From positions 1 through 51,643 of the forward strand of contig JBBRUO010000001.1 of NCBI GenBank assembly GCA_038247725.1: 51,643 nt of DNA. The letters run 5' to 3'. Positions 16,874 through 49,676 of this stretch are shown piece by piece. The notes beneath the pieces are model-generated. The model had not been told where the DNA came from. It did no database searches and was given only the letters and a program-made list of their open reading frames with translations. Numbering within the stretch: position 1 is the stretch's first letter; every line of letters begins with the position of its first letter. A program made the position numbers and the translations under genes. The DNA comes from Gemmatales bacterium. Lineage in GTDB: Bacteria > Planctomycetota > Planctomycetia > Gemmatales > Gemmataceae.

Positions 16874-19780
16874 TCACGTCCACTCGGCCTGGACGCGGAA
16901 CGTCTCTCCGGCGGAGAAGTCCACCGGGATCGCCCCCTCGTTCAGGGCGATTTCCCGCTCCACGGTCCCTTCCCCGTCGATCATCACCGCCTGCACCGGG
17001 TCGCGGGCGAAGCGGATGTCGGCCGCGCCGCCGAACCCGGCGCACTCGACGAACCGCATCGCCACCGCCCGGTTCATCCCCTCCCGCGCCCGCACCGGCC
17101 GCAACTGCGTCATGAGCAGGCTGGGCAGGTCCACGTGCCCCAGCCAGCCGGTCGGCCCGATGTGCGGCGGCCCCTTCTCCGTCCGCACCACCGGCGACGG
17201 GGTCACCCACCCGGCGGCCGTCTGCATCGGGTGTTCACGGTCCATCGCCAGCAGCAGGTCGAATTGTCGGCCGGTCTCGTTCTCCGGGATCAGCACCACG
17301 TCGGCCGTCCGCGGGTCGATCTTGTGGATGAACGGCAGCCCGCCGGTGAACACGAACGTCCGCTCGGCCCCCATTCGGACTTCCAGGTAATCCGGCGACA
17401 CCGGGTACGTCGAGCCGGTCTGGCAGTTGGCCCCGTTCACCCCCCGGAAGAGGGCGGCCCGGTCGCTCCGCCAGACGAACCGCGCACCGAAGTAGTTGTG
17501 CCACGGGTAGCCGGCGGGCTGCTTGACCGGGTCGAGTTCGATCCGCACCTCCAAGACCGGCCGCCCGACCCACGCCCGGAGCCGCTGCGAGAAGGTGGCC
17601 AGCACCTCGTCGTGCGCGTCCACGATCTCGCCCACGCAGGTCACCTCGCCCAGCGCGGTGCCGCTGTTCGTGACCGTCACCCCGCGGCAGCGGGTGTTGC
17701 TGCCGGGGTTGAACACCAACTGCATGCCGATGCGGTTGACCCGGTTCCGCGTGTCGCGGAGCGCCCGCATCGCCCCGGTGACGGGGTCGAAGTCGGCTTC
17801 GAGGAACTCGTTCCGCACGGCGGTCCCGTCGGCCGTCTTGAGGCGGGGTTTGGGCGGCGCGGCGGTGCCGTCGCGGGGAATCCACGCGAACCCCAGGGAC
17901 GGCACCTCCACCACCAGCTTCGCCGACGTGCCGCTGAACTCGGCCGCCTTCACCGGCCCGTCCACCGGGATCGGCCCGCCGAAGTCGTCGATCTCCAGCG
18001 CCACCCGGCGGGTGAAATTGCACGGGTTGAAGACCATCAACCCCGGTTGGTGGTCGGCCGAACGCACCTGCACGCGGTCAGCCAGCAGTTGGGCGAAGGC
18101 GGTTTCGATTCCCGCGCCGTGTTCCACCGGTGCGGTTTGGAACACCTCCCCTCGTTGAGGGGAGGTCGGTTGCGCCGCAACCGGGAGGGGAGATTCCGAA
18201 GAGTCAAGCGAAGACTCCCCTCCCGCCGCTTCGCGGCGACCTCCCCTCAACGAGTGGAGGTGGGAAGAATCCCCCCCGCCCCGCTCCATCGCCGCTTCTT
18301 CCGCCTCCACCTCCCGCAGCAACTCCGCGTCCTTTTCCCCCTCCGGGGTGAGGCTGCGGTACAGCGCCGCCAGCGCGTAGGCCGCGTCGATCCGCCGTCG
18401 CGCCCGGTGGTGTTCGGCGACCGCGGTCACCACGTCCGCCCGCTTCTGGTTCGTCACCAGGTCGTCGAGCGCGTCGAAGTGGTAGTCGTCCGCCGACGTG
18501 CTGCCGAGGTAATCGCCGTAGCTGATCTCGGACAGGAACTGGGTCAGCCCGATCCACTCGCCGCACGGGTCGCCGAGCGCGGCCGACGCCAGCAATGCGT
18601 CGTACCCCACCGCCACTGCGTCGCCGGTGTGCTTGAAGGCGATCACCGGGTTCGAATCCGTCGTGAACGCCTGGTGCAGGTGGTACACCAGGTTGAAGAA
18701 CGTCAGCGGGTCGGCGGCGTCGAGCGGCTCGCGGCCGAACGCCTCCACCGACTTGCCGTCCGGCGCGGGCCAGTTCACCACCGCCGTGTTCCGCACCGGC
18801 GTCCGCCCGCCGTCGAAGCTGACGGCGACGGCGTTCGTATACCCGACGTGCCGCAGCCAGCTCGGCAGGAGCAGGTGCTGGGCCGACCGCGCCCGCGCGT
18901 ACACGGCCGCTTCAGTGCCGAGCAGTTTGCGAACGGCCGTCCGGCCGGTCGTCAGGTTCCACAACTGCGACTCGGTGGGCAGCAGCGGGTCGTCCCGTTC
19001 GGTGTACCCGCCGCAGCACACGTCCACGTTGTCCGCCTTCAACTCTTCCAACCGCTCCGGGTGCCGCTCGGCCAACTCCTCCAGCACTTCGCCGGACGCG
19101 ATCACCGACAACGGCAACCCCGCCGCCCGCGTCGGCGGCCACGGCCGGTCGAGTTTGTCTTTGTTCAGAAGGGCGATATCGACCAGCCGCAGCGGGTTCG
19201 AGTTCAGCACCATCCGCGCGCTGGCCACCTTCTCGGCGGCGAGTTTGAGCTTCTCGGTGATCGCCTCCGTGCCGGCGTTTTGCCGGACCGACTCCACGGC
19301 CTGCTGAACGTCTTCCCAGAACGCCGGCACGTCGAGCAAATGTTCGTGGTCCATCGCGTCGAACAGGGATTCGACCACGAGGTAGGCGTACCCCAGCCCG
19401 GCGAACAGGCGGACGACCTCGGCCGGCGCGGTCTGCAGGTCCGGGTTCAGCCCGGTGGCGCGGAAGTGGGCGGCGGTCTCGAACTCGTCCGACGAGATGG
19501 CGAAGCCGACGGCGTTCGCGGCGGCGAGCCGGTCCTTCCAGTCGTCGGGCTGGTACAGGGACGGGTCCGTCGGGACGGCGTACAGGAACCCCTCGCCGGG
19601 CTTGTCGTGGTCGTAGGACGACGACGCCAGCGGGGGCTTGCTCAGGCCGGCCAGGGCCGCCGGGTGCCACAGTTGCAAGTACCCGTTCAGCCAGGCGGTG
19701 GCCTCGTCCGGGTTCAGGCTGACCGGGTACGAGGTGGGTGGGCGGTACGGGGAGAGCAGGTGCGCTTCGCGGTCGGGCAT
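16874..19780 (-). CDS. Large conserved protein of unknown function (weak GH38 N-domain-like segment, catalytic motif not evident)
   Basis: This is the 968-aa portion of the 1755-aa track ORF, starting at the ATG at 19778..19780 (MPDREAHLLSPYRPP...). Composition is balanced from here on, whereas the upstream 787 residues are R/P/G-rich and overlap two better genes in other frames. The segment VCCGGYTERDDPLLPTESQLWNLTTGR loosely resembles GH38-type barrels. Confidence 0.65.
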   Translation of the reverse strand: MPDREAHLLSPYRPPTSYPVSLNPDEATAWLNGYLQLWHPAALAGLSKPPLASSSYDHDKPGEGFLYAVPTDPSLYQPDDWKDRLAAANAVGFAISSDEFETAAHFRATGLNPDLQTAPAEVVRLFAGLGYAYLVVESLFDAMDHEHLLDVPAFWEDVQQAVESVRQNAGTEAITEKLKLAAEKVASARMVLNSNPLRLVDIALLNKDKLDRPWPPTRAAGLPLSVIASGEVLEELAERHPERLEELKADNVDVCCGGYTERDDPLLPTESQLWNLTTGRTAVRKLLGTEAAVYARARSAQHLLLPSWLRHVGYTNAVAVSFDGGRTPVRNTAVVNWPAPDGKSVEAFGREPLDAADPLTFFNLVYHLHQAFTTDSNPVIAFKHTGDAVAVGYDALLASAALGDPCGEWIGLTQFLSEISYGDYLGSTSADDYHFDALDDLVTNQKRADVVTAVAEHHRARRRIDAAYALAALYRSLTPEGEKDAELLREVEAEEAAMERGGGDSSHLHSLRGGRREAAGGESSLDSSESPLPVAAQPTSPQRGEVFQTAPVEHGAGIETAFAQLLADRVQVRSADHQPGLMVFNPCNFTRRVALEIDDFGGPIPVDGPVKAAEFSGTSAKLVVEVPSLGFAWIPRDGTAAPPKPRLKTADGTAVRNEFLEADFDPVTGAMRALRDTRNRVNRIGMQLVFNPGSNTRCRGVTVTNSGTALGEVTCVGEIVDAHDEVLATFSQRLRAWVGRPVLEVRIELDPVKQPAGYPWHNYFGARFVWRSDRAALFRGVNGANCQTGSTYPVSPDYLEVRMGAERTFVFTGGLPFIHKIDPRTADVVLIPENETGRQFDLLLAMDREHPMQTAAGWVTPSPVVRTEKGPPHIGPTGWLGHVDLPSLLMTQLRPVRAREGMNRAVAMRFVECAGFGGAADIRFARDPVQAVMIDGEGTVEREIALNEGAIPVDFSAGETFRVQAEWT
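18143..18262. repeat. Composite GC-rich palindromic element embedded in frame in the 16874..19780 CDS
   Basis: Local hairpin: ACCTCCCCTC-GTT-GAGGGGAGGT (18144..18166). Long-range inverted repeat: CTCGTTGAGGGGAGGTC (18151..18167) with GACCTCCCCTCAACGAG (18238..18254). Inner hairpins are GGGAGGGGAG...CTCCCCTCCC and GCCGC-TTC-GCGGC. The element is translated as a low-complexity insert: ...GGGDSSHLHSLRGGRREAAGGESSLDSSESPLPVAAQPTSPQRGE... Confidence 0.6.
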
Positions 19781-31178: not shown

Positions 31179-31370
31179 TCTTCCGGCCTGAAGGGCCGGT
31201 TCTACTAGCCCAGGCCGTGAGGCCTGGGGTTATGGTCGAACAAAAACCCCGGCCCTGAAAGGGCCGTTCGTGGCTCGCCGTGAATGACCCTTTCAGGGCC
31301 GGGGGTGGAACGGACGGGTACCCAGGCCTCACGGCCTGGGCTAGTAGAACCGGCCCTTCAGGCCGGAAGA
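31179..31370. repeat. Nested giant palindrome (49-50-bp perfect arms)
   Basis: 31180..31228 (CTTCCGGCCTGAAGGGCCGGTTCTACTAGCCCAGGCCGTGAGGCCTGGG) is the exact reverse complement of 31321..31369, and T31179:A31370 adds one more pair. An inner 17-bp inverted repeat is CCCCGGCCCTGAAAGGG (31247..31263) with CCCTTTCAGGGCCGGGG (31288..31304). Each arm also contains local hairpins (CCGGCC..GGCCGG and CCCAGGCC-GTGA-GGCCTGGG). Confidence 0.9.
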
Positions 31371-34781: not shown

Positions 34782-37700
34782 ATGGCTGCCCACCGCCCCC
34801 TGCACCCCGGCAGGCTGCCCGTGACCGCCTCCAACCCGAACCCGCTCGCAACCGGCCCCGGCCGCGCGTACCTCCTGGACGCGCACGGCATGGTGTTCCA
34901 GATGTTCCACGGCATCCCGCCGATGACCGCCCCGGACGGCCGGCCGACGAACGCCGTGTTCGGCGTCACGCGGGCCATCATGGACCTGTACGACCGGGGC
35001 GCGGACTATCTCATCGCCACGTTCGACTGCCCGGAGCCGACGTTCCGCGACGCACTGTTCGCCGAGTACAAGGGCCACCGCGACCCCGCCCCGGACGACC
35101 TCATCGCCCAGGAACCGCTCATCGACCAAGTGCTAGACGCGATGCGAATCCCGGTCCTGCGGGTGCCGGGCTTCGAAGCCGACGACGTGATGGCGACCCT
35201 CGCCACCGACGGTTCCGCCCGCGGGTTGGAGGTGTTCCTCTGCACGTCCGACAAAGACTGCCGGCAACTGCTGTCGCCGACGGTGCGGATGCAGAACCTG
35301 CGCAAAGGGGCGATCCTCGACGAAGCCGGACTGATGGCCGACTGGGGCGTGCGGCCGGATCAAGTCGTGGACTTCCAGGCACTCGTGGGCGACAGCGCGG
35401 ACAACGTGCCGGGCGTGAAGGGGTGCGGGCCGAAGACCGCCACCGCCTGGCTGAAGGAGTTCGACACCCTCGACCACCTGATCGCCAACGCGGACAAGAT
35501 CGCCAAGCCGAAGTTGCGCGAGTCGCTGAAGAAGTCCATCGCCGACGGCGGACTGGCGCTCAGCAAGACGCTGGTGAAGTTGCGCACCGACGTGCCGATG
35601 GCCCTCGACTGGGACGGCTGGCGTCGCCGCGACTGGGACGGCCAACGGCTTCTCGAGTTGTTCCAGGAGTTCGGCTTCCGCGGGTACGCCGAGCGGGTGC
35701 GCAAAACCCTGGCCAAGAGCGGGGCGAAGAAGAACGAGGCGATGTTGGGCGATGCCGGCTTGTCCCCCTCCCCCCTCCCGCCAGGGGAGGGGGGAACCGG
35801 CAAAGAAACCAAAAAAAAGCCGAAACTGCCCCGACCCGGTCAGCCGTCGCTGTTCGACCAGATCGACGGCGAGGGCGATGCGTCGTTCGAGTTCGGGCTG
35901 AACGCGCCCGTCGATGACGGCTGGAAGACCGACTACCAGTGCATCGATACCCCAGCGAAGTTCGCCGACTTCCTGGTGGCATTGAAGGCGCAACCGCGGT
36001 TCGCCTTCGATCTGGAAACGACCGCCCTCGACCCGCTGCGGTGCGAGATCGTCGGTTACTCCTTCTGCTGGCAAGCCGAAAAAGCGTACTACCTGCCGGT
36101 GCGCGGGCCAAAGACCGACGCGGTGCTGGCCCCCGCCGCCACGCTCGCCGCGCTGAAGCCCGTCCTCGAAGACGCCGCCGTTCAGAAAGCGAATCAGAAC
36201 ATTAAATACGATCTACTCGTGTTGCGCAACAACGGCATCACATTGCGCGGCGTCGCCGGGGATTCGATGGTCGCGCATTACCTGCTCGACGCCGGCGCGC
36301 GGTCGCACAATCTTGATGATTTAACCCGCGAGTGTTTTCAGCACGAGAACATCTCGATCAAGACGCTGATCGGCACCGGCAAGAAGCAGGTCACGATGGC
36401 CGAAGTGCCGGTGGCGAAGGCGTGCGCCTACGCCGCCGAGGACGCCGACGCCGCGTGGCGGCTGACGGAGCGGTTCGAGTCTTCGCTGGTTCCCCCCTCC
36501 CCCCTCACCCCCCTCCCGCCAGGGGAGGGGGGAACCAGCGAAGACACATTCCCACTCTTCCCGGGGAGAGGGGGACAAAGCCTGAAGAAGTTGTACGACA
36601 CGCTGGAAATTCCACTCATCGACGTGCTGGCGGAGTTGGAGTTCAACGGCATCCGGCTGGATGTACCGTTCCTGGCGAAGCTGTCACAAGAGATGGAGGT
36701 TCAACTCGTCGCCCTGGAACAGGACGCGCATAAACTCGCCGGCCGGGGGTTCAATCTCGCCTCGCCGAAACAGTTACGGGAAATTCTGTTCGACGAGATG
36801 AATCTGCCCGTCCAGAAGCGCACCGGCACCACGAACGAGCCGAGTACCGATCAGGAGTCGCTCGAACGCCTCGCTGCGCTCGGCCACGACTTGCCGAAGA
36901 CGCTCATTGGGCACCGACAGGTAGCGAAGTTGAAAGGCACTTACGTCGATACCCTGCCCGCGCTGGTGAACCCGACCACCGGCCGGTTACACACGTCGTT
37001 CAACCAGACCGTGGCCAGCACCGGCCGACTGAGTTCGTCGGACCCGAACTTGCAGAACATCCCCGCTCGCACCGAACAAGGGCGACAGATCCGGCAGGCG
37101 TTCTTACCCCGCGACGGCTGGCAACTCCTGACCGCCGACTACTCGCAGATCGAGTTACGGCTGCTCGCGCACTTCTGCGAGGACGAGAACCTGTGCCGCG
37201 CGTTCGCCGAGGATCGGGACGTTCACGCGGCCGTCGCCGCGCAGGTGTTCGGCGTGCTCGAAGCCGAAGTCACGAAGGATCAGCGCGGCGCGGCGAAGAC
37301 GGTGAACTTCGGCGTCATCTACGGCATCAGCGCCGTCGGCCTGTCGGTGCAACTGGGCATCCCGAAGAAGGACGCGGCCAAGTTCATCGACGAGTATTTC
37401 GCCAAGTACCCGAATGTGCTGGCGTATCAGAACGGGCTGCTGGCGCGGGTGCGGAAGGACGGCTTCGCCGCGACGGTGCTGGGCCGCCGGCGGGCGTTCA
37501 ACCCGGACGCCATCCGGCCGAAGTCCAGTTACGAGCAGCGCAACCAGGCCGAGCGGGAAGCCATCAACATGGAGATTCAGGGGTCCGCCGCAGACCTGCT
37601 GAAAGTCGCCATGCTGAACCTGGACCGCCGGATGAAGGCCGAGAAGTTGGCAGCGAAGATGCTACTGACGGTGCATGACGAACTGGTGTTCGAGGTGCCG

Positions 37701-37829
37701 CCGGCGGAGTTAGCCGCCGTCGCCGCGCTGGTGCGGCACGAAATGACGACGGCCCTCCCCTTCCGCGTGCCGCTGAAGGTGGATGTCGCCGCCGGCCCCA
37801 ACTGGCTCGACGTGGAGGACCTCGCGTGA
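34782..37829 (+). CDS. polA: DNA polymerase I
   Basis: 1015 aa. It contains a 5'-nuclease domain (LLDAHGMVFQMFHG..., GFEADDVMATLA), a 3'-5' exo-like domain (FAFDLETTALDP, YAAEDADAAW) and the family A polymerase motifs (LLTADYSQIELRLLAH, RGAAKTVNFGVIYG, LLTVHDELVFE). Two repeat-derived inserts account for the extra length. Confidence 0.95.
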   Translation: MAAHRPLHPGRLPVTASNPNPLATGPGRAYLLDAHGMVFQMFHGIPPMTAPDGRPTNAVFGVTRAIMDLYDRGADYLIATFDCPEPTFRDALFAEYKGHRDPAPDDLIAQEPLIDQVLDAMRIPVLRVPGFEADDVMATLATDGSARGLEVFLCTSDKDCRQLLSPTVRMQNLRKGAILDEAGLMADWGVRPDQVVDFQALVGDSADNVPGVKGCGPKTATAWLKEFDTLDHLIANADKIAKPKLRESLKKSIADGGLALSKTLVKLRTDVPMALDWDGWRRRDWDGQRLLELFQEFGFRGYAERVRKTLAKSGAKKNEAMLGDAGLSPSPLPPGEGGTGKETKKKPKLPRPGQPSLFDQIDGEGDASFEFGLNAPVDDGWKTDYQCIDTPAKFADFLVALKAQPRFAFDLETTALDPLRCEIVGYSFCWQAEKAYYLPVRGPKTDAVLAPAATLAALKPVLEDAAVQKANQNIKYDLLVLRNNGITLRGVAGDSMVAHYLLDAGARSHNLDDLTRECFQHENISIKTLIGTGKKQVTMAEVPVAKACAYAAEDADAAWRLTERFESSLVPPSPLTPLPPGEGGTSEDTFPLFPGRGGQSLKKLYDTLEIPLIDVLAELEFNGIRLDVPFLAKLSQEMEVQLVALEQDAHKLAGRGFNLASPKQLREILFDEMNLPVQKRTGTTNEPSTDQESLERLAALGHDLPKTLIGHRQVAKLKGTYVDTLPALVNPTTGRLHTSFNQTVASTGRLSSSDPNLQNIPARTEQGRQIRQAFLPRDGWQLLTADYSQIELRLLAHFCEDENLCRAFAEDRDVHAAVAAQVFGVLEAEVTKDQRGAAKTVNFGVIYGISAVGLSVQLGIPKKDAAKFIDEYFAKYPNVLAYQNGLLARVRKDGFAATVLGRRRAFNPDAIRPKSSYEQRNQAEREAINMEIQGSAADLLKVAMLNLDRRMKAEKLAAKMLLTVHDELVFEVPPAELAAVAALVRHEMTTALPFRVPLKVDVAAGPNWLDVEDLA
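35769..35798. repeat. Polypyrimidine/polypurine hairpin repeat, copy 1, in frame in polA
   Basis: TCCCCCCTCCC (35769..35779) pairs perfectly with GGGAGGGGGGA (35785..35795) around the loop GCCAG. The 29-mer CCCCCCTCCCGCCAGGGGAGGGGGGAACC (35770..35798) recurs identically at 36508..36536. It is translated as ...SPSPLPPGEGGTGKE... Confidence 0.8.
36486..36576. repeat. Polypyrimidine/polypurine hairpin repeat, copy 2 (composite), in frame in polA
   Basis: CTGGTTCCCCCCTCCCC (36486..36502) is the exact reverse complement of GGGGAGGGGGGAACCAG (36522..36538), giving a 17-bp stem. An alternative 10-bp stem forms around the same GCCAG loop as in copy 1. A second module, ...CTCTTCCCGGGGAGAGGGGGAC (to ~36576), follows. 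The whole is translated as VPPSPLTPLPPGEGGTSEDTFPLFPGRGGQS. Confidence 0.8.
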
Positions 37830-48679: not shown

Positions 48680-49518
48680 CCGACCCCCTGCTCTCGCACC
48701 TGATCGGCGTGGCGAACGACACCGGCCGGCCGCTCGGCGAGGTGCTGCGGCACCACTTCCTCGAAGGCATTTTGCGACGGCTCGGCGGGACCGACGCCTT
48801 CGCCCTGGCCGGCAGCATGTTGACTCGCGTCTGGTCCGGGGCCTTCCCCCGCGCGGCGGCCGACGTGGACTTCCTCGGCACCTTTCCGCACGATGTCGCG
48901 GAGACCACCCGGCGGTTCGTGCCGCCGCTCGCGGCCGACCACGACGACGGCATCCGCATCGACATCACACGCGGCTTTTCAAAAGGCATCTGGCAAGACA
49001 CGGCGTTTCCCGGCGTCCGGCTGTCGGTCATCGGCAAGCTGTTCAGCCAGCGGCAAGCGACGACCGTGGACATCGGGTTCAACGACCCGCTGGTCCCGCC
49101 GGCGGAGCGCATCGCGTACCCGCCCGTGTGGGGCGACCCGGTTCCGGTTTTCGCCGTGCATCGGGCGACGTTGGCCGCGTGGAAACTGCACGGCCTGGCC
49201 GAGTGGGGCGACCACAACTGGCGGGCGAAGGACGTTCTCGACTTGTGGCTGTTGACGGTCGAACCGCTCCCGGCTGATGAGATGACGGACGCGATTCGCG
49301 CGGCGTTCGTCAGCCGGGGTTACGCCGTCGCGGACGCGGCGCGGGTGCTGGCGGACGCGGCCCGGTGGGGCGATGCCGCCGCGCAAGCCAAGTGGGCGGC
49401 TCTGTTCCGCGAGTGCCAGCCCGACCCCGTTCCCGTGATGTTGACGGACGCGATTGCCGACATCCGCCGCCGACTGGCCGGTTGTTTAAGACCTCACCCC
49501 CCGTCCCCCTCTCCATGA
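48676..49518 (+). CDS. AbiEii/AbiGii (DUF1814, MenT-like) nucleotidyltransferase family protein
   Basis: A GTG at 48676 forms a GTGA overlap with the upstream stop. Pol-beta-type NTase motif: LAGS-x15-DVDFLG. Further blocks are TVDIGFND, AAWKLHGL and RAKDVLDLWLL (the R.KD..DL motif typical of AbiEii). The last ~10 codons and the stop are supplied by the repeat element at 49488. Confidence 0.75.
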   Translation: MTDPLLSHLIGVANDTGRPLGEVLRHHFLEGILRRLGGTDAFALAGSMLTRVWSGAFPRAAADVDFLGTFPHDVAETTRRFVPPLAADHDDGIRIDITRGFSKGIWQDTAFPGVRLSVIGKLFSQRQATTVDIGFNDPLVPPAERIAYPPVWGDPVPVFAVHRATLAAWKLHGLAEWGDHNWRAKDVLDLWLLTVEPLPADEMTDAIRAAFVSRGYAVADAARVLADAARWGDAAAQAKWAALFRECQPDPVPVMLTDAIADIRRRLAGCLRPHPPSPSP

Positions 49519-49676
49519 ATGGAGAGGGGGTGTTCAACCCGCAACGGTGGAACGACCTCCGGCGTGTGGAACCGAACCACCCAGGAAAACCAAGTTCGGA
49601 ACGCGGCGGATCGGCAACGTTTTCGTTTTGAACACCCCCTCTCCGGGACGGAGAGGGGGCCGGGGGGTGAGGTCTT
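49488..49676. repeat. MITE-like element with ~49-bp terminal inverted repeats, each arm itself a hairpin
   Basis: Left arm 49488..49537: AAGACCTCACCCCCCGTCCCCCTCTCCATGAATGGAGAGGGGGTGTTCAA. Right arm 49628..49676: TTGAACACCCCCTCTCCGGGACGGAGAGGGGGCCGGGGGGTGAGGTCTT. The arms are reverse complements apart from one mismatch and the differing inner loops (ATGAAT and GGGAC). A 90-nt core lies between them. Confidence 0.8.

Follow-up and report, generated by a model that had tools for sequence, protein, structure and literature searches.

A dispersed hairpin repeat resides in frame within DNA polymerase I and other genes of a Gemmatales bacterium

The DNA polymerase I gene (polA) of a Gemmatales bacterium carries copies of a short palindromic repeat at two sites, and both copies are read in the frame of the gene. 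The gene is located on a stretch of 51,643 nucleotides (nt) which we call the window (GenBank assembly GCA_038247725.1, contig JBBRUO010000001.1, positions 1 to 51,643). An earlier reading of the letters of this window alone, here termed the sequence-only reading, had noticed the repeat and proposed that it had colonised the gene. We find that the two polA segments are very probably copies of a dispersed, non-coding family of hairpin repeats, the C/G-run family, comparable to the REP/REPIN sequences and to the Rickettsia palindromic elements (RPE). The copies which persist inside genes would be the stop-free, in-frame survivors in loops and linkers, carried along as near-neutral passengers.

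The core of the repeat is a 29-mer, CCCCCCTCCCGCCAGGGGAGGGGGGAACC, which is identical in the two polA copies just as the sequence-only reading had it. In 100 dinucleotide-preserving shuffles not a single match with up to three mismatches was obtained. The source assembly (G000) is a metagenome-assembled genome (MAG) of 5.96 Mb in 757 contigs with 67.7% GC and an estimated completeness of 87%; its nearest relatives by PolA are MAGs labelled Fimbriiglobus sp. within the Gemmataceae. When both strands of this genome are searched, the 29-mer is found 20 times exactly, 40 times with at most one mismatch, 78 times with at most three and 120 times with at most five. An nhmmer search gave 128 hits, and a generic hairpin pattern matched 87 times as compared to six matches for a control. 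About 100 further contigs carry the 29-mer together with its flanks, both within unrelated genes and between genes. The family is thus dispersed over the genome and not confined to polA.

The repeat unit is about 60 nt long and reads TCCCCCTCCCCCC-TAA-CCCCCCTCCC-GCCA-GGGAGGGGGG-AACCAGCAAAGAC or, with the ambiguities included, (a/t)TTCCCCCTCCCCCC-TAA-CCCCCCTCCC-GCCA-GGGAGGGGGG-AACCAGC(A/G)AAGACACAA. Units are arranged as singlets, as direct tandem arrays and as head-to-head doublets. Eleven direct neighbour pairs were found, seven of which are spaced by exactly 42 nt (14 codons), as well as eight head-to-head pairs with spacings of 57–123 nt and one tail-to-tail pair. Of the repeat clusters, 34% have a contig end less than 240 nt away, where 6% would be expected. 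This excess indicates that the repeats break the short-read assembly and that the true copy number is probably higher. Poly-C and poly-G runs are seen beside copies at several contig ends (e.g. C538, C524, C403 and C293) and inflate loose pattern counts; these runs are probably artefacts of sequencing or assembly and not biology.

How many of the copies reside within genes was determined with a home-made codon log-odds model, trained on long open reading frames (ORFs) with a high GC content at the third codon position. On polA this model scores the true frame with +0.35 to +0.43 and every other frame negative. Each of the 106 clusters was classified from its 240-nt flanks; 36 are too near to contig ends, which left 70 assessable clusters. 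In 16 of these (23%) an unbroken ORF continues through the repeat in frame, and a coding signal is present to either side. The other 54 are outside gene interiors, five of them between same-strand ORFs of different frames and 49 otherwise placed, mostly intergenic. Random 60-nt windows fall into gene interiors in 46% of the cases (binomial p = 6e-5). Gene interiors therefore contain the family about half as often as expected, which is a depletion but far from an exclusion. Intragenic copies are as near to the consensus as intergenic ones (on average 1.7 versus 2.5 mismatches) and are thus not older relics.

The host genes are real genes. A Pfam match was obtained for 15 of the 16 in-frame host ORFs, one of these matches being weak, and in most of the 16 there are Pfam domains on both sides of the insert or across it. 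Domains span or flank the insert in PolA (at two sites), an Hsp70 paralogue, the PheT core, SelB, RsgA, a HisA/HisF-family barrel protein (HisF), a resistance-nodulation-division pump of the AcrB type, an M32 carboxypeptidase, a GT2 glycosyltransferase, a methyltransferase, a synthase of 2618 residues of the polyketide/polyunsaturated fatty acid type and a PSCyt1-PSCyt2-PSD1 protein. The clearest hosts are Hsp70, PheT, HisF, SelB, RsgA and AcrB. In SelB (contig C22:858-3188), three units form an insert of 54 residues (C22:1637-1796) between the GTPase domain and domain II.

The features of the polA locus are collected in Table 1. The 5′-nuclease, 3′–5′ exonuclease and polymerase domains are all present (Pfam PF02739, PF01367, PF01612 and PF00476), spanning residues 29–286 (5_3_exonuc), 385–568 (DNA_pol_A_exo1) and 631–1009 (DNA_pol_A). 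The motifs DLET, NIKYD, YAAEDAD, DYSQIELR, the KTVNFG motif and VHDE are unbroken in the translation. The protein matches the Taq, Klenow and Bst structures in the PDB, and these alignments resume at residues 590–603, which is the start of the polymerase domain. The domain borders agree with the placement originally proposed for both copies, and the translation of the ORF confirms that the two are read in the same phase.

Table 1. Features of the polA locus and its repeat copies (window coordinates)
Feature	Position	Strand	Remarks
polA, DNA polymerase I, 1015 residues, intact	34782..37829	+	host ORF of both inserts; Pfam, PDB matches, AlphaFold
Site-1 repeat unit, forward, in the 5′-nuclease/exonuclease linker	35752..35811	+	residues ~324-344; reads ..SPSPLPPGEGGTGKETK; nhmmer/census cluster
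29-mer core, copy 1	35770..35798	+	residues 331-339, PLPPGEGGT; exact match
Site-2 composite, ~103 nt, at the exonuclease-polymerase junction	36479..36581	+	residues ~567-600; reads SSLVPPSPLTPLPPGEGGTSEDTFPLFPGRGGQS
Perfect inverted repeat, 24 bp	36479..36545	+	arms 36479-36502 / 36522-36545, 19 nt between
29-mer core, copy 2	36508..36536	+	residues 577-585, PLPPGEGGT; exact match
Degenerate second hairpin unit	36549..36581	+	ttcccactcttccc-gggg-agagggggacaaagc; right border GGGGAGAGGGGGACAAAGC common to G007 insert at the same site

At site 1, the unit includes a 46-nt direct repeat (35764–35809), and the copy forms a hairpin with a perfect 11-bp stem (arms 35769–35779 and 35785–35795) and a 5-nt loop; the RNA fold has −30.8 kcal/mol. 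Site 2 is a composite of the reverse complement of the 3′ arm of the unit, one full forward unit and a degenerate second tandem unit. The latter ends with GGGGAGAGGGGGAC and matches contig C657 with 91% over 90 nt. It is the second hairpin module which the sequence-only reading had described at this site, and we can now assign it to the same family. The stems of 11 bp in copy 1 and 10 bp in copy 2 were likewise described correctly. The alternative 17-bp stem in copy 2 has to be replaced by the perfect 24-bp inverted repeat, and this longer stem dominates the fold of the 116-nt region as RNA (minimum free energy −70.2 kcal/mol, z = −5.45).

It had been supposed that the inserts add 40–50 residues to the enzyme; the net gain is smaller. 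At site 2 it amounts to about 27–30 residues, as the segment from EDAD to E.PL has 60 residues instead of the usual 33. The site-1 element accounts for about 15–20 residues, and its linker (129 nt) is not lengthened with respect to the two nearest relatives (141 and 126 nt). In an AlphaFold2 model of PolA, computed from a 40-sequence alignment, the mean predicted local distance difference test score (pLDDT) is 85.2. Values below 50 are only found at the N-terminus (residues 1–24), in the site-1 linker (326–377) and at site 2 (574–598), which is flanked by the confident helices 544–568 and 601–622. The low scores of the two segments and the structure matches resuming at the polymerase domain thus place both inserts between the folded domains, in segments which are probably disordered.

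The inserts are specific for the lineage. We aligned PolA from 30 relatives and, as a further set, 72 PolA sequences of Gemmataceae and other planctomycetes from public genomes. Among the 30 relatives, most orthologues of the same genus and all of the same order have a four-residue loop of the E-P-L-G type at site 2. In the further set the segment from EDAD to E.PL has 33 residues in 59 of the 72 proteins and at least 41 residues in seven, G000 included. Neither of the two nearest relatives, G007 and G012 (PolA 86% and 84% identical), has the site-1 repeat. At site 2, G007 has an insert with the same borders (TCTTC.CTGGT... and ...GGGGAGAGGGGGACAAAGC), but its inner unit runs the other way, reading VPLSPGGEGLGVRG. 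The common borders and the flipped inner unit suggest a shared ancestral insertion with internal turnover. Independently, the same family was inserted into the site-1 linkers of G017 and G018 (in G018 reversed, reading PLSPGGRGVRGEG) and, in a distant planctomycete (L120, PolA 51% identical), into the loop at site 2.

Other relatives carry other elements at site 2. In G012 (L003/L050) we found a nested perfect palindrome of 107 nt which is derived from two other dispersed families, the outer arms being CCGCTCGCGGAGCGAGCAGAACAC and the inner part TGGTGGCACCGGC...GCCGGTGCCACCA. These families have 133 matches in G012, 86 in G007 and 24 in G000. The insert of G003 resembles a dimer of a GTAG-tagged REP and that of G013 is another perfect palindrome. 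The picture is similar in other genes. The HisF and Hsp70-paralogue inserts of G000 are missing from the nearest relatives, and in other species the HisF and Hsp70 loops hold different inserts, several of which are palindromic. The sequence-only reading had named two observations that would speak against colonisation by a repeat, namely its confinement to polA and the conservation of the segments in distant PolA orthologues. We find instead that the repeat is genome-wide and that the segments are not conserved among the orthologues. With 16 of the 70 clusters in frame in genes and the lineage-specific inserts in PolA, HisF and Hsp70, the suggestion of an RPE-like process in a planctomycete holds.

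The 29-mer with at most three mismatches is present in 78 copies in G000 as opposed to 0–6 copies in each of the 30 relatives, which mostly carry the variant CCCCTCTCCC...GGGAGAGGGG. A generic 10-bp hairpin has 18–170 copies in 13 of 90 other Gemmataceae genomes; of the 91 genomes searched, 54 lack it altogether. Outside the family, 150 genomes that sample the remainder of the phylum are practically devoid of the strict hairpin pattern. We therefore reject the idea of a phylum-wide superfamily; the absence from the phylum and the patchiness within the family point to a Gemmataceae-restricted repeat with lineage-specific bursts.

We suggest that the repeat reached its present positions in the following way. 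This sequence variant has been amplified recently in a Fimbriiglobus-like planctomycete, and its copies land throughout the genome. Within genes, those copies would survive which lie in a surface loop or an inter-domain linker and which keep the frame in a stop-free phase. The consensus unit is free of stop codons in four of its six frames, three of which are actually used, and the uniform phase of the same-orientation intragenic cores (see below) speaks for this scheme. The retained copies would then be translated into short, disordered peptides rich in Pro, Gly, Ser and Glu. In PolA such peptides would sit in the linker between the 5′-nuclease and the exonuclease and in the loop between the exonuclease and the polymerase. 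Most likely the inserts are near-neutral passengers. For the copying step, the most plausible candidate is a single-stranded hairpin mobilised in trans by a HUH/Y1 (RAYT-like) tyrosine transposase, to which we give somewhat less than an even chance.

Several observations weigh against this scheme. The genome encodes four Y1_Tnp genes (PF01797, IS200/RAYT-type), and no copy of the polA family was found within 700 nt of any of these or on the same contig; since the MAG is 87% complete, the absence of a cognate RAYT is not proven. Neither did we find a target-site duplication when filled and empty DNA was compared for HisF (G000 versus G007 and G012) and for PolA. The filled and empty sites show no clean insertion but a replacement of 12–21 nt of host DNA: in HisF, 51 nt of repeat stand in place of 12 nt, and about 21 nt have given way to the insert at PolA site 2. 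Insertion may therefore take another route such as recombination, template switching or the replacement of an older element. The census rests on a home-made codon-bias caller and on an 87%-complete MAG in 757 contigs, with 36 of the 106 clusters unassessable. Finally, a search for RNA runs holding the polA locus returned none.

Two of the RAYT-like genes, at C198:1-900 and C77:13000-13821, are flanked by their own, different GTAG-tagged REPs (e.g. GGGTAGGCCCGACAAC... and GTAGCCCGACTCTCCGAGTCGG). These loci look like canonical REPtrons; their repeats are distinct from the C/G-run family, and no link between the genes and this family was found. A GTAG or CGTC tag was not found beside the stem of the C/G-run repeats. 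Conservation is weak in the bases that adjoin the stem, with a majority TAA at −3 to −1 in 27–28 of 62 copies, AACC on the 3′ side and CTAC in a few copies; the unpaired bases by the stem are mostly CTAA/TTAG.

Four other explanations were considered. The inserted mobile repeat could by now be a domesticated regulator, so that the polA hairpin of −70 kcal/mol modulates expression by ribosome pausing, RNase III processing, pausing of replication or transcription, or gyrase binding. The perfect 24-bp stem is indeed unusually strong, a related insert has been kept at site 2 in G007, and it has been speculated that REPs in repair genes alter their activity (Di Nocera et al. 2013, PMC3733652). However, a 157-nt contig from a freshwater metagenome (run X11), about 94% identical, has a short site-2 loop, FESELGGEVRKLYD, which contains GGGGAGG. 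This contig corresponds to window positions 36391–36481 and then 36594 onwards, with 28 nt (GGAACTGGGCGGGGAGGTACGGAAACTC) in place of the 112-nt stretch that includes the site-2 composite. The short loop could be the ancestral empty site or a deletion remnant; it hints at a presence/absence polymorphism, on which we do not rely. Moreover, the unrelated palindromes of G012, G013 and G003 indicate that no specific sequence is conserved at the site. We therefore consider a regulatory role improbable.

Still less probable is that selection acts at the protein level on the Pro/Gly-rich motif PLPPGEGGT, as an interaction site or a flexible linker, that the motif spread by convergence or by a recombination akin to exon shuffling, and that the palindrome is incidental. 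In favour of this explanation is the use of reading phases. All ten same-orientation intragenic cores, from nine clusters, are in one phase and give PLPPGEGGT, (S)PLTPLPPGEGGTSKD. The other open forward phase, which would give the Arg-rich PPPARGGGN, PPPARGGGNQQRH, is used by none of the ten (two-sided binomial p = 0.004). In addition, the same loops have been struck repeatedly in related species. Yet intragenic copies in the opposite orientation are translated as well, into the unrelated peptides VPPSPGGRGVRGEG (four copies) or FPPPLAGGG (four copies), and about three quarters of the assessable copies are outside gene interiors. What is conserved is the hairpin in the DNA. The host proteins have unrelated functions, and their inserted segments, for which disorder is predicted, are not found in close relatives. 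The phase bias is explained equally well by purifying selection against the Arg-rich frame. As insertion itself is blind to the reading frame, we would interpret the bias as a filter by which selection acts on the peptide that a copy encodes. A selected protein motif is rejected.

We give hardly any credence to an assembly artefact by which mis-joins or collapsed repeats would have put the repeat into polA. The assembly is fragmented, and repeats stand at many contig ends, some with poly-C or poly-G runs. Against this, the PolA ORF is in frame and collinear with its orthologues across both repeats. Logan contigs from three independent studies, with freshwater sediment, 'outdoor' and sediment samples as sources, begin in unique polA sequence, reach the repeat from either side at each of the two sites and then break; the contigs of run X1, for instance, cover 35500–35792, 35769–36492 and 36533–36800. 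The G007 insert with its identical right border likewise argues for a genuine insertion. The last explanation, a simple local tandem or segmental duplication inside polA without any mobile family, could appeal to the restriction of the 29-mer to polA within the window and is practically ruled out by the copies with flanks on about 100 other contigs and by sister genomes which hold the family elsewhere.

With the passenger hairpin family as our preferred explanation, some features are less expected: the large proportion of intragenic copies, the strictness of the phase use, a tandem period of 42 nt which preserves the frame, and the repeated colonisation of the same loops by unrelated families in sister species. 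With four stop-free frames, a period of 14 codons and a single phase per orientation class, the C/G-run family might be adapted to life in genes. The exonuclease–polymerase loop of PolA has received five unrelated kinds of insert: the C/G-run repeat (G000, G007 and the distant planctomycete), the two nested families of G012, the GTAG-like dimer of G003 and the palindrome of G013. One might speculate that permissive protein loops in this Gemmataceae clade are reusable landing pads where unrelated palindromic families insert into or replace one another in coding DNA, which we judge to be rather unlikely. If this were true, REP-like elements would target existing palindromes or hairpin-prone DNA even within ORFs, and they would continually generate variation in the length of loops of essential proteins. 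The repeated use of the same loops by different families makes it possible to test whether REP-like elements are directed to hairpins already present.

There are also practical aspects. The inserts mark sites in Pol I, Hsp70, HisF, PheT, SelB and RsgA which tolerate 13–54 extra residues. The repeats fragment short-read MAGs, and low-complexity segments of the "PLSPGGRGVRGEG" type can mislead homology searches and domain calls.

Other palindromes were seen in the same genomes. The window contains three blocks of other dispersed palindromic families at 18143–18262, 31179–31370 and 49488–49676, for which blastn-short reports about 187 places (first block), 37 (second) and 87 (third). The first block contains a ACCTCCCCTCAACGAGGGGAGGTG hairpin, which frequently adjoins copies of the polA family and gives BIME-like mosaics. 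The loop of the Hsp70 paralogue in G007 (L131) holds a perfect palindrome of GCGAGCGGGGGGCGTAAGCCCCCTGTT paired with AACAGGGGGCTTACGCCCCCCGCTCGC. This motif is also present in G000 at C637:~900-1000, about 600 nt from a RAYT-like gene on that contig.

How does the C/G-run family compare with known systems? Searching the literature on palindromic repeats in Planctomycetes, Gemmata and Fimbriiglobus, we found no description of the family or of the phenomenon in Gemmataceae; a single study bears on it (Di Nocera, De Gregorio and Rocco 2013, BMC Genomics 14:522, PMC3733652). These authors catalogued intragenic REPs in several phyla and found them prominent or enriched in replication and repair genes. 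The GTAG/CGTC REPs are high-copy stem–loops, mostly intergenic, which occur as singlets, dimers or groups, and an in-frame subset encodes about 10–80 residues (PMC3733652). The PVC superphylum is represented by Planctomyces and by Opitutus terrae, the latter with abundant intragenic REPs, and the supplementary list includes a REP dimer at residues 338–367 of DNA polymerase I of Rhodopseudomonas palustris (RPE_4821, 1012 residues) (PMC3733652). This dimer is located in the same linker as site 1 of the G000 protein. The sequence-only reading was right to cite the Rickettsia elements as a precedent, though not as the only one known, and with this broader precedent the process is less novel than first supposed. 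The family and the lineage are new; the phenomenon is known.

The C/G-run family shares with the intragenic REPs that it consists of short, high-copy stem–loops of which a subset is in frame in known proteins. It is a short dispersed palindrome with a stem of 10–11 bp and a loop of 4–5 nt, and it forms inverted doublets. It differs in that it lacks the GTAG/CGTC tag, that its stems are pure C-runs and G-runs and that no cognate RAYT was found adjoining it. Compared qualitatively with REP families, its intragenic share of 23% and its strict phase use appear to be high.

REPIN–RAYT systems were reportedly described by Bertels and Rainey in 2011 and by Nunvar and colleagues in 2010. Similar to these, the C/G-run family has eight head-to-head doublets which can fold into a longer hairpin, a species-specific variant with a copy-number burst of its own, and RAYT-like genes in the same genome. 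In contrast, the REPs that flank the RAYT-like genes on C198 and C77 are GTAG-tagged and of other families, and direct 42-nt arrays are as common as inverted doublets. Bacterial miniature inverted-repeat transposable elements (MITEs) such as Nezha of cyanobacteria and Chunjie of Geobacter are non-autonomous palindromic elements which are occasionally tolerated in frame in ORFs. The C/G-run family is also palindromic, is tolerated inside ORFs and has a long form with 24-bp inverted arms. Unlike MITEs its units are shorter, there is no target-site duplication, and no parent insertion sequence with matching terminal inverted repeats was identified. As tag, target-site duplication and a nearby RAYT are lacking, we describe the family by likeness and do not file it as a member: it works like REP/REPIN or RPE and is placed neither with the GTAG/CGTC REP superfamilies nor with the MITEs.

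The RPE are reported, by Ogata and colleagues in 2000, as palindromic repeats that lie in frame in many functional ORFs including housekeeping genes. They occupy surface-exposed, fold-compatible positions with a preferred reading phase and are found in coding and non-coding DNA; RPE-1 is about 100–150 nt long. The C/G-run family, too, is in frame in functional ORFs at positions which appear compatible with the fold, given the Pfam domains on both sides and the PolA segments with pLDDT below 50. It differs by its units of about 42–60 nt, its free-living host with a large genome, the other phylum and the several families per loop in sister species. We thus regard it as an analogue of the RPE and not as a member, set apart by host, unit length and C/G runs, that is, by description. 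The in-frame colonisation of essential genes by palindromes is not confined to reduced intracellular bacteria and is active and frequent in free-living planctomycetes with large genomes.

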